A DNA stretch of 64,000 nucleotides from an uncultured Bacilli bacterium (GTDB lineage: Bacteria; Bacillota_I; Bacilli_A; RF39; UBA660): assembly GCA_944372425.1 (NCBI GenBank), contig CALVZC010000002.1:7139-71138 (forward strand). Reading direction: 5' to 3'. Numbering within the stretch: position 1 is the stretch's first letter; each line of letters opens with the position of its first letter. Position numbers and translations under genes: made by a program. Positions 22,737-24,724 of this stretch are shown here, in pieces. The notes below the pieces were generated by a model. The model did no database searches. It had not been told where the DNA came from and worked only from the letters and a program-made list of their open reading frames with translations.

Positions 22737-22780
22737 TATAAATATAAAATAGGAAGAAGGTAAAATAATGAAAAGTATGA

Positions 22781-24724
22781 ATGCAAACAAATATTCGAGT
22801 GGGGGGGGGGCACTTTACTAAAATAAAAGGTTTTACATTAATAGAACTATTAGCAGTAATAATAATACTAGGGGTATTAATGATAATAGCAATACCAGCA
22901 GTAAGTAGTTATATAACAAATGCTAGAAAAAATGCTTATATAACGACAATAAAAGGGTATCAAAGTGGAATATCCCAAAAAGTAAATAACTTAGAATATT
23001 CATTTTTAGATACAGATACAACTTATTATGTACATATAGATAATATTAGACTTGAAAAAGGAGGAAAAAGTCCTTTTGGAGAGTGGTTAGATGCATATGT
23101 AGTAGTAACATATAATGGAAGCGGATATGACTATTATTGGACAAGCGTAGATGAATCTGGATATAAAGTAATTTTAAAAGATATAGAAGATATAACAATT
23201 GATGATATAATAAATGATTCATATAAAGCAATAAGTAAAAGAAGAGCAATAGAAAATAGAAATAAAATAATAATAATAGATAAAAATGGAAATTTAATAG
23301 AAGAAACTCCTAGTTTAGAATTATCACCAACGGAAGCAGAAAATTGTTATATTTATACAAAAAAAGAAGAAGGAATTGCTATATATTCATATAATAATAA
23401 ATGTACAAAAGATGTAATAATACCTTCAAAAATAGAAGGGATAGATGTAATAGAAATAGGAGAATATACATTTGAAGATAGTAAAATAAACTCTGTAAAA
23501 ATAGCAAACACAATTAAGACAATTGGTAATGCTGCTTTTAGAAATAATAATTTGAAAGCTTTAGACATTCCAGAAAGTGTAACAAAAATAGGAAATGAGG
23601 CATTTTCAACTAATTATTTAACAAAATTACCAGATGTATCAAATGTAACAAGTATGGGAAGAAATGTCTTTGCTAATAATCAAATATCTGAAGAAGACTG
23701 GTTTATATATAAAAAGAATAATGATGGAACATATGATTATTCGACAATAGTTGGATATTTAGGAACAGATAAAGATATTATAATTCCTGAGGAAGCAAAT
23801 GGTATCAAATTAACTACAATCGGAGCTTCAGCTTTTTCTGGAATGAATCTTACCTCTGTTATTATACCTGATTCTGTAGTTACAATAGGAAATGCAGCAT
23901 TTAGTAGAAATAAATTGACCAGTGTAATATTACCTTCTAATTTAAAAACAATTGATGGAGAAGCATTTTATGTTAATCAATTAGAATCATTAAATATACC
24001 TGATTCTGTAATCAAAATAAACTCAAAAGCATTTAATAATAATCAGTTAAAAGATGAAGACGCATTTATATATAAAAGGACAGAAGCGGGAATAGATTAT
24101 TCGACAATAATAGGATATGGTGGAAAAAATAGAGAAAACGTTATAATTCCAGAAGAAAAAAACGGAGTAATATTAAAAAAAATTGATGATTATGCTTTTT
24201 ATGCAAACAGAATAAAGAAAATTGTTATACCTGATACAGTGACAAGTATTGGAATAATGTCTTTTATTTTGAATTCTTTACCTGAGGAAGACGCATTTAT
24301 ATATAAAAGGACAGAAGAAGGAATAGATTATTCGACAATAGTAAGTTATGGAGGAAATAATGAAAATCTTATAATACCTAAAGAGGTTAATGGTGTAGAA
24401 TTAAAAGAAATATCAGATTATGCATTCTTTTATACTAATTTATCGAGTGTTGAAATCCCCGATACTGTTATAAAAATAGGAAATAATGCCTTTGGCAATT
24501 GTTATCTAACAGAAGTTGTTATACCAACATCTGTAGAAGAAATTGGTTTGAATGCATTTTGTAAAAAAGTTACATATGAAGATTTTAACATGCTAACAAA
24601 AATAATAAATAAAACAGGTAGAAGTTTTGATTGGAAGAGTATAACAGGAAGTAATTACGAAGCAAATTTTGTAACCGGAACTATTAGACATCAATATGGC
24701 AATATAAATGTAGTTGATAATTAG
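22781..24724 (+). CDS. Prepilin N-terminus fused to BspA-like leucine-rich-repeat adhesin domain; phase-variable 5' end
   Basis: KGFTLIELLAVIIILGVLMIIAIP prepilin motif, then a conserved pilin-family block (EKGGKSPFGEWLDAYVVVTYNGSGYDYYW), then about 12 LRR units (IPxSVxxIGxxAFxxNxL). The RBS-proximal ATG 22768 is out of frame because of a G10 tract. ATG 22781 has no RBS. Confidence 0.8.
   Translation: MQTNIRVGGGHFTKIKGFTLIELLAVIIILGVLMIIAIPAVSSYITNARKNAYITTIKGYQSGISQKVNNLEYSFLDTDTTYYVHIDNIRLEKGGKSPFGEWLDAYVVVTYNGSGYDYYWTSVDESGYKVILKDIEDITIDDIINDSYKAISKRRAIENRNKIIIIDKNGNLIEETPSLELSPTEAENCYIYTKKEEGIAIYSYNNKCTKDVIIPSKIEGIDVIEIGEYTFEDSKINSVKIANTIKTIGNAAFRNNNLKALDIPESVTKIGNEAFSTNYLTKLPDVSNVTSMGRNVFANNQISEEDWFIYKKNNDGTYDYSTIVGYLGTDKDIIIPEEANGIKLTTIGASAFSGMNLTSVIIPDSVVTIGNAAFSRNKLTSVILPSNLKTIDGEAFYVNQLESLNIPDSVIKINSKAFNNNQLKDEDAFIYKRTEAGIDYSTIIGYGGKNRENVIIPEEKNGVILKKIDDYAFYANRIKKIVIPDTVTSIGIMSFILNSLPEEDAFIYKRTEEGIDYSTIVSYGGNNENLIIPKEVNGVELKEISDYAFFYTNLSSVEIPDTVIKIGNNAFGNCYLTEVVIPTSVEEIGLNAFCKKVTYEDFNMLTKIINKTGRSFDWKSITGSNYEANFVTGTIRHQYGNINVVDN
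22801..22810 (+). repeat. Homopolymeric G10 tract (slipped-strand mispairing site)
   Basis: Ten consecutive G in a genome of about 27% GC. It sits in codons 12-15 of the ORF that begins at ATG 22768. Confidence 0.95.
24056..24116 (+). repeat. Intragenic near-identical repeat (LRR unit), copy A
   Basis: gaagacgcatttatatataaaaggacagaag....ggaatagattattcgacaata recurs at 24287. Period 231 bp. Confidence 0.7.
24287..24347 (+). repeat. Intragenic near-identical repeat (LRR unit), copy B
   Basis: See copy A. A third, diverged copy lies at about 23693. Confidence 0.7.

Follow-up and report, generated by a model that had tools for sequence, protein, structure and literature searches.

A poly-G tract in the leader codons of a predicted modular type IV pilin gene as a probable on/off switch in an uncultured Bacilli lineage

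Does a run of ten guanines in the first codons of a surface-protein gene act as an on/off switch for that gene? The question is raised by a stretch of 64 kb from an uncultured Bacilli bacterium (contig CALVZC010000002.1 of assembly GCA_944372425.1), hereafter the window, in which such a run (G10) lies just upstream of the codons for the cleavage motif of a predicted type IV prepilin with a leucine-rich repeat (LRR) module. An earlier note, made from the window sequence, had proposed that slipped-strand mispairing at this poly-G run switches a pilin-LRR adhesin gene between out-of-frame and in-frame states. Comparative data on tract length, reading frame and open reading frame (ORF) intactness strongly support this proposal. 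We consider it highly probable that G10 is a simple-sequence contingency locus, acting as a translational on/off switch in the leader codons of the LRR pilin.

The tract is exceptional in its sequence context. The window has a GC content of 25.7%, and not the approximately 27% given in the earlier note, and a G frequency of 0.160. With independent, identically distributed bases at this frequency, about 7e-4 runs of ten G are expected in 64 kb. G10 is found at 22801-22810 as had been claimed, and no other run of G or C in the window reaches six; it is followed in length by four G5 runs, and a run count detected no C5 run in the same 64 kb. The claim that the tract exceeds chance is thus upheld.

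The position of the tract relative to the start codons determines which frame is read. To estimate start strength, the 17 nucleotides (nt) located 5' of a candidate start were paired with the 16S rRNA 3' tail and the duplex energy was computed. This energy is -6.8 kcal/mol for ATG 22768, -0.6 kcal/mol for ATG 22781 and +0.4 kcal/mol for GTG 22799, as compared with a median of -6.7 for 29 gene starts of the window and a mean of -1.6 for all of its 1583 ATGs. ATG 22768 is therefore the only one of the three candidates with a Shine-Dalgarno site. Sequence, energies and translation agree with the earlier description of this site and its spacing to ATG 22768, of the short frame that starts there and is closed by a TAA codon, and of the long ORF, which lies in the next frame and whose own ATG has no ribosome-binding site (Table 1). 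In the G10 state the frame of ATG 22768 ends after 17 codons, and the window allele is thus predicted to be OFF from the Shine-Dalgarno-linked start and at most weakly expressed through ATG 22781, in line with the earlier expectation that the gene is OFF unless this second ATG is used. We rejected ATG 22781 as a genuine conserved start, because it has no Shine-Dalgarno site and is missing in the orthologues L001, L030 and L032, which read aatAcaaac at this position. The proposal was incorrect on one point, namely that gaining one G (G11) or losing two (G8) would restore the frame. Translation of edited sequences indicates that the long ORF is read from ATG 22768 at G9 and G12, and hence at G15, and that G8 and G11 lead into the third frame, which is closed.

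The long ORF encodes what the sequence and a structure model identify as a modular type IV pilin with a BspA-type LRR module. A Pfam search detected the prepilin N-terminal methylation motif PF07963 and four LRR_5 stretches (PF13306, E = 2e-59), and NCBIfam the GFxxxE pilin domain TIGR02532; PF07963 and TIGR02532 both score above their cut-offs. The protein displays the features of a class III signal peptide, KIKG/FTLIELLAVIIILGVL (a slash marks the predicted cleavage site throughout), with a leader ending in Gly, a hydrophobic helix and a Glu at +5. Cleavage is predicted after the Gly encoded at 22829-22831, with the mature protein beginning at the Phe encoded from 22832. An AlphaFold2 model built with 55 homologues (mean predicted local distance difference test score of 91) comprises a disordered leader, a 50-residue α1 helix (residues 20 to 69), a β-sheet pilin module that extends to about residue 175, and an LRR solenoid. 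Using Foldseek, the solenoid was matched to BspA/TpLRR-type cell-surface proteins, including 4gt6, 4fs7, 4cp6 (pneumococcal PcpA) and 6mlx (TpLRR). Removal of the leader, display at the pilus tip and a function as an adhesin are inferred from this architecture. The family is large, with 6039 proteins at E ≤ 1e-10. The leaders of 111 more distant homologues are 5 to 11 residues long and none of the 111 has a Gly run; by this comparison of sequences, the tract-bearing leader of 20 to 24 residues is a derived trait of a single clade.

DNA from relatives was retrieved by looking up exact proteins and by scanning GTDB genomes once with an 18-mer. The lineage is labelled 'uncultured Bacilli bacterium', and its complete genome, OZ006981.1, measures 1.31 Mb. 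The window is 100% identical to ENA scaffold ONAT22-1_SAMEA6814454 scaffold_357 (L029). The gene was found at four or more loci. One lies between rseP and smc and is that of the window; the others follow polC, follow pyk, or adjoin a cation ATPase gene. Two copies with the conserved leader 18-mer are present in the complete genome, and only the smc-locus copy in the window. The 18-mer scan returned 21 stretches, of which four are real (two in OZ006981.1, one each in CASEVQ010000026.1 and CASFCU010000084.1); the other 17 were discarded as chance matches in unrelated taxa. JGI metagenome scans for CAAACAAATATTCGAGT-N(0-24)-ACTTTACTAA and then for AACAAATATTCGAGTGGGGGGG gave no match in a collection that apparently does not contain the known JGI tract contig, L007.

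Tract lengths are given here with the number of nucleotides between the AGT and His codons in brackets, ON denoting alleles in frame with the conserved ATG. At the smc locus, the tract is G10 in the window and in L030 (10 each), G11 in L032 (11) and G14+A in L001 (15, ON). The polC locus harbors G12+A (13, L002), G10+C (11, L031) and G8AGG (11, L025), and the pyk locus G9+C (10, L003 and L018), G9 (9, ON, L004), G10+AC (12, ON, L005), G11+C (12, ON, L016) and G11AGGGG (16, L033). Other loci carry gtG9 (10, L006), G12 (ON, L007) and G9 (L011). The 15 related alleles span G8 to G14 at one site and represent all three frames, also at the smc locus of the window; the tract is hence not invariant, a state that by the earlier note would have counted against the proposal. 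It is polymorphic among close relatives with flanks that are 93-99% identical, and L033 and L003 are 99.1% identical over 7.8 kb, yet have G11AG4 and G9C, respectively. Copies from one sample can differ in state: of those in ERZ16268139, L004 (pyk) is ON and L031 (polC) is OFF. In every copy, the tract follows caaacaaatattcgagt, and no other G or C run of at least six occurs at its locus (86.8 kb of related loci). The Shine-Dalgarno site is identical in the smc-, polC- and pyk-locus paralogues, with related purine-rich variants in L006, L007 and L011.

Proteins provide a wider view of the alleles. We compared eight clusters at 90% identity, in which 54 near-full-length members keep the N-terminal region. 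Nineteen of the 54 start in frame at the conserved ATG, and in close homologues their leader reads MKNMNTNKYSS-Gly3/4/5-HFTKIKG/FTLIELL. Gly3 occurs in two of these in-frame alleles, Gly4 in seven and Gly5 in four, the other six having interrupted runs such as GRG, EGG, GGGD and GGGEG. A further 30 are called only from an internal Met (MIIAIP), which we read as the mark of an out-of-frame allele, and the remaining five, which include the window allele and P0003 (without a Gly run), start elsewhere. The in-frame and internal-Met members of the pairs P0159/P0163 and P0140/P0142 have identical 613-residue cores, and those of four further pairs are one residue apart. Annotations of the family are thus systematically wrong near the tract: the internal-Met calls drop the pilin signature, and gene callers gave the window allele a spurious start. 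Different alleles (L011, which is CASFCU010000084.1, P0167 and P0140) were also observed to read caaacaaatattcgagt-G(n) in two frames, as NTNKYSSGGGG or as MQTNIRVGGG. This indicates conservation at the DNA rather than the peptide level, the cause of which could be recent homogenisation or a role at the nucleic-acid level.

The following mechanism may be envisaged. Slipped-strand mispairing during replication would alter the length of the G run. Whenever the AGT-to-His stretch is a multiple of three (G9, G12, G15), ribosomes from ATG 22768 would make the full prepilin with the leader MK(S/N)MN(A/T)NKYSS-Gly(n)-HFTKIKG, which prepilin peptidase would then remove before FTLIELL. Since the tract lies in the removed leader, every in-frame length would give the same mature protein. 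At G10, the frame would end after the 17 codons and the gene would be OFF. We infer slippage as the mutational process, and its reversibility, from a locus that combines a G run of hypermutable length (about eight or more) in an ORF, a frame that shifts with length, polymorphism, and OFF alleles that are intact.

The out-of-frame alleles might instead be decaying pseudogenes in which the poly-G run is a mutational hot spot for inactivating frameshifts, with no adaptive switching. More than half of the assembled alleles are indeed out of frame, and the in-frame share is near the neutral one third. However, the ORF is open past G/FTLIE in all 13 DNA alleles examined, whatever the frame of the tract, over 624 to 631 codons (the ORF of L011 is cut by the contig end), with no frameshift or stop elsewhere, and all 30 internal-Met proteins are still 613 to 615 residues long. 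The ratio of nonsynonymous to synonymous substitution rates (dN/dS) is mostly 0.07-0.4 between orthologues, including OFF-OFF pairs; a few values for the pilin module reach 0.8, each on at most eight substitutions. Intact ORFs and dN/dS values that are for the most part well under 1 led us to reject pseudogene decay. Alleles of the in-frame and internal-Met kinds also coexist on identical cores, and the tract is G8 or longer in all alleles, with no erosion, so that this explanation can hardly hold. Correction at the RNA or ribosome level, by RNA polymerase slippage on the G run or by programmed frameshifting, would make the length at the DNA level almost irrelevant and provide some full-length protein from all alleles. 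Long homopolymers are generally known as sites of RNA polymerase slippage, and no result of the present analysis favours such a correction. The well-documented cases of bacterial transcriptional slippage involve mostly A/T runs, which counts against it. Moreover, all three DNA frames occur, and no single programmed shift would serve them all. An Rfam search of 22400-23200 detected no frameshift element or other RNA family at the tract, the one sub-threshold match (mir-16) being a chance match inside rseP. We regard correction at this level as very unlikely.

The tract and its length also have to be distinguished from errors. The earlier note had considered that the tract might be a sequencing or assembly artefact. 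Several studies have yielded assemblies, made with SPAdes, MEGAHIT, IDBA or metaFlye or of a long-read style (s652.ctg...), and the tract occupies one and the same codon in all of these; the long-read-style and metaFlye assemblies of one genome agree on G9C (L003, L018). This concordance shows that the tract is real, and a two-colour Illumina poly-G read-end artefact was rejected on the same grounds. It might still be that G10 is a length error, the true tract being G9 or G12 and the gene simply expressed in this strain. Homopolymers of at least nine are error-prone, assemblies give one consensus for a mixed population, and contigs often break near the cassette (L006, L007, L016, L030). Against this, the sequence is identical in ENA scaffold L029 (an NCBI record with the same protein is probably derived from these data too). 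Within the study, a second sample has G10 at the locus (L030) and a further one G11 (L032), and lengths range from G8 to G14 among assemblers and platforms, far more than one-base errors would produce. A length error in the window is thus unlikely and, even if true, would leave the polymorphism in relatives standing. Finally, the switch may be a three-level 'volume control', in which alleles with the second-frame ATG (window, L006, L011-type) would be low-expression and not null at a length of 1 modulo 3; this is compatible with the on/off switch and changes only the state assigned to the window sequence. ATG 22781 is in frame with the 647-residue ORF and would provide a plausible leader, MQTNIRVGGGHFTKIKG/F. 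The same nucleotides, read in the frame of ATG 22781, form the normal leader (MKLKEMQTNIRVGGGNF...) of a related lineage (L011, P0167), and the gene caller picked this ATG for the window allele. Yet its duplex energy is far from the median of gene starts, and the real Shine-Dalgarno site is located 20 nt upstream. It is also not conserved, and ribosomes loaded at ATG 22768 would pass it in another frame. A third expression level is therefore conceivable but doubtful.

Several points weigh against the poly-G switch itself. With about one third of the alleles in frame, neutral drift among the three frames would also fit. The in-frame ATG 22781 of the window allele means that its OFF state may leak. 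Homopolymers in metagenome assemblies can be about one base off and represent the majority genotype only, and the interrupted tracts G8AGG, G11AG4 and G9C could be errors at the ends of G runs. Heterogeneity within populations, and reversibility, are predictions from the comparison of assemblies. Furthermore, Pfam searches of 30 other ORFs found none of the type IV pilus machinery (assembly ATPase, platform protein, prepilin peptidase) within the window.

Sequence comparison places the gene in a paralogous family in which each copy carries the same putative switch. The first approximately 500 nt of coding sequence after the tract, corresponding to the pilin module, are 93-98% identical among the smc, polC, pyk and ATPase loci, whereas the LRR part is about 63% identical between paralogues. 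The stretch from the ribosome-binding site to the leader is near-identical at the smc, polC and pyk loci, but the ATPase-locus copy L006 has only 76% identity over the 100 nt upstream. Between the smc and polC loci, similarity continues upstream for about another 105 nt, in which the hairpin and the promoter-like site lie. Synonymous divergence (dS) between paralogues is 0.08 in the pilin module versus 0.74 in the LRR module, a mark of concerted evolution of the 5' cassette that suggests gene conversion confined to this part. With regard to the shared upstream elements, promoter and terminator scans found nothing above shuffled sequences, and the hairpin was not called, having too few G-C pairs; the function of the hairpin and promoter-like site in transcription of the gene is likewise putative. 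The T run after the hairpin (22689-22697 in the window) varies, with about T17-18 in L002 (at about 2830-2850) and T8 in L031, whereas the window shares T9 with most other alleles. It is a second length-variable homopolymer and might affect transcription. Contigs L030, L006, L007 and L016 begin or end within about 80-170 nt of the tract, which would be as expected if caused by the shared cassette or by tract heterogeneity. Copy number and tract states are probably under-reported in metagenome-assembled genomes of this lineage.

Copies also differ in presence between strains. In the window, polC (41315-46273) is directly followed by the convergent cation ATPase gene (46309-48915, minus strand). 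The relatives L002, L025 and L031 have an extra pilin-LRR paralogue after polC, and L006 has a paralogue beside the ATPase gene followed by a 113-nt duplicate of the polC 3' end, although the ATPases of L006 and the window are 99.2% identical. These differences at the polC-ATPase junction indicate that an adhesin cassette has been gained or lost between near-identical strains. Independent switching of copies with divergent LRR modules would lead to the display of different LRR tips on the pilus. We tentatively suggest, as a possibility to be held with some reserve, a combinatorial tip-swapping system that unites a homogenised 5' cassette, divergent LRRs, gain and loss of copies, independent poly-G switching and, in some alleles, a third low-expression state.

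The proposed switch resembles known systems in its parts. Jonsson et al. reportedly described in 1991 (EMBO J 10:477) a poly-G tract in the signal-peptide codons of pilC of Neisseria gonorrhoeae/meningitidis. The gene is listed as 'pilC G(9-20), genic' (PMC5953494). In pilC1/pilC2, as is proposed here, a G homopolymer of about 9 to 20 nt in the 5' coding region turns a type IV pilus-tip adhesin ON or OFF by frameshifting, two paralogues switch independently, and the tract lies in a part that is removed, such that in-frame lengths are equivalent. In contrast, PilC/PilY1 is not a pilin and combines a Sec signal peptide with a β-propeller, whereas here the adhesin is fused to a pilin with a class III leader; a Pfam search detected no PilY1 domain in the protein. 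The hosts also differ, Neisseria being a β-proteobacterium and the present lineage monoderm Bacilli with 26% GC. Neisseria pilC is thus the closest functional analogue, but the window protein is not a member of the PilC/PilY1 family.

By protein family, the closest analogue is found in Candidatus Mycoplasma girerdii. In this organism, phase variation of BspA-like LRR surface proteins through simple sequence repeats was detected from metagenomes (PMC5476646). It shares with the present lineage a multigene BspA-type LRR family, a small low-GC genome within the Bacilli/Mollicutes radiation, frameshifting repeats that toggle, or here are predicted to toggle, single copies, and many copies that are OFF in the assembled consensus. 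Unlike here, the repeats are mostly dinucleotides (e.g. CA(10)), the proteins are not pilins, and variants were measured at the read level rather than from assemblies. The protein itself fits the modular type IV pilins of Raynaud et al. (PMC8179133), exemplified by Streptococcus sanguinis PilB (vWA) and PilC (lectin) (PMC8179133, PMC9934059). Both kinds join a pilin module with a class III leader to a bulky C-terminal binding module, presumably at the tip, in a monoderm host, but no phase-variable tract has been described for the S. sanguinis pilins, and their leaders have about 7 residues compared with 20 to 24 and a Gly run here. We take IPR026906, which is in the list of PMC8179133, to be the entry for the BspA-type LRR, the same LRR type as in the window protein. 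The arrangement of the start codons is reminiscent of lic1A, in that a repeat lies between alternative starts in different frames and the ORF, with ATG 22768 having and ATG 22781 lacking a Shine-Dalgarno site. The Haemophilus influenzae gene was reportedly described by Weiser et al. in 1989 as a multi-ATG translational switch with strong, weak and off states. It differs in that its repeat is the tetranucleotide CAAT and that it is a lipopolysaccharide phosphorylcholine gene. The second ATG of the window allele is a putative start and lacks conservation.

Two further prepilin-type genes are present in the window, both without a G tract (Table 1). One of them, at 3587..4249, is a candidate structural partner in the filament, as judged from its sequence. 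In the relative L004, a gene for a small acid-soluble spore protein (SspI family, PF14098) was observed at 7649-7876; it hints at sporulation in a strongly reduced Bacilli genome, in a lineage with a genome of about 1.3 Mb. Four sizeable ORFs of the window had no Pfam or NCBIfam match, at 54258-55745 and 56100-57587 (495 residues each), 1437-2390 (317 residues) and 40433-41278 (281 residues). The tandem 495-residue ORFs at 54258 and 56100 were considered as possible paralogues and found to be unrelated to each other.

Table 1. Positions of the poly-G tract, associated elements and prepilin-type genes in the window.
Feature	Position	Strand	Remarks
Second stand-alone prepilin-type gene (MKSSKAFTLIELL...)	2929..3498	+	Motif scan; ordinary short leader
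Stand-alone type IV pilin, leader MKKINKKG/FTLIELL (7 residues)	3587..4249	+	Pilin module 51% identical to that of the LRR pilin
Terminator-like hairpin AGAAC-agta-GTTCT with T run, weak	22675..22697	+	By eye; just past the rseP stop codon
Promoter-like site TTGATA-17 nt-TAAACT	22708..22736	+	Putative; 9/12 matches, no better than shuffles
Shine-Dalgarno site GGAAGAAGG	22752-22760	+	-6.8 kcal/mol; 7 nt before ATG 22768
ATG 22768 and 17-codon frame MKSMNANKYSSGGGALY followed by stop	22768..22821	+	TAA 22819-22821 closes the frame at G10
ATG 22781, fortuitous, second frame	22781..22783	+	In frame with the long ORF at G10; only in alleles reading aatGcaaac
Long ORF, 647 residues	22781..24724	+	Next frame relative to ATG 22768
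G10 homopolymer	22801-22810	+	In codons 12-15 counted from ATG 22768; source of the Gly run in the leader; putatively hypermutable
Prepilin peptidase motif G/FTLIEL	22829..22849	+	PF07963, TIGR02532, motif scan
Pilin module, α1 helix and β-sheet	22832..23305	+	AlphaFold2 model; paralogue DNA 93-98% identical
BspA-type LRR module, variable putative adhesin part, up to the stop codon	23348..24724	+	PF13306; Foldseek

The mechanism proposed for the tract is classical, whereas it is new for this host lineage and for this gene family. In literature searches, neither a modular pilin switched by poly-G nor any such switch in a pilin of a monoderm was found to be described, and if the tip-swapping interpretation is true, this would be the first pilin family under the control of contingency loci in a monoderm. 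The biology of contingency loci, which so far rested on Neisseria, Haemophilus, Campylobacter and Mycoplasma, would be extended to uncultured Bacilli of very low GC content that have genomes of about 1.3 Mb and are known only from metagenomes, and also to modular type IV pilins, the regulation of which has received little attention. Such a switch would imply strong fluctuating selection on pilus-tip binding, for example by host immunity, receptor heterogeneity or phage. It predicts that the LRR adhesin on display differs between single cells within a strain, and switching in situ could be read out directly by counting tract lengths in metagenomic reads.

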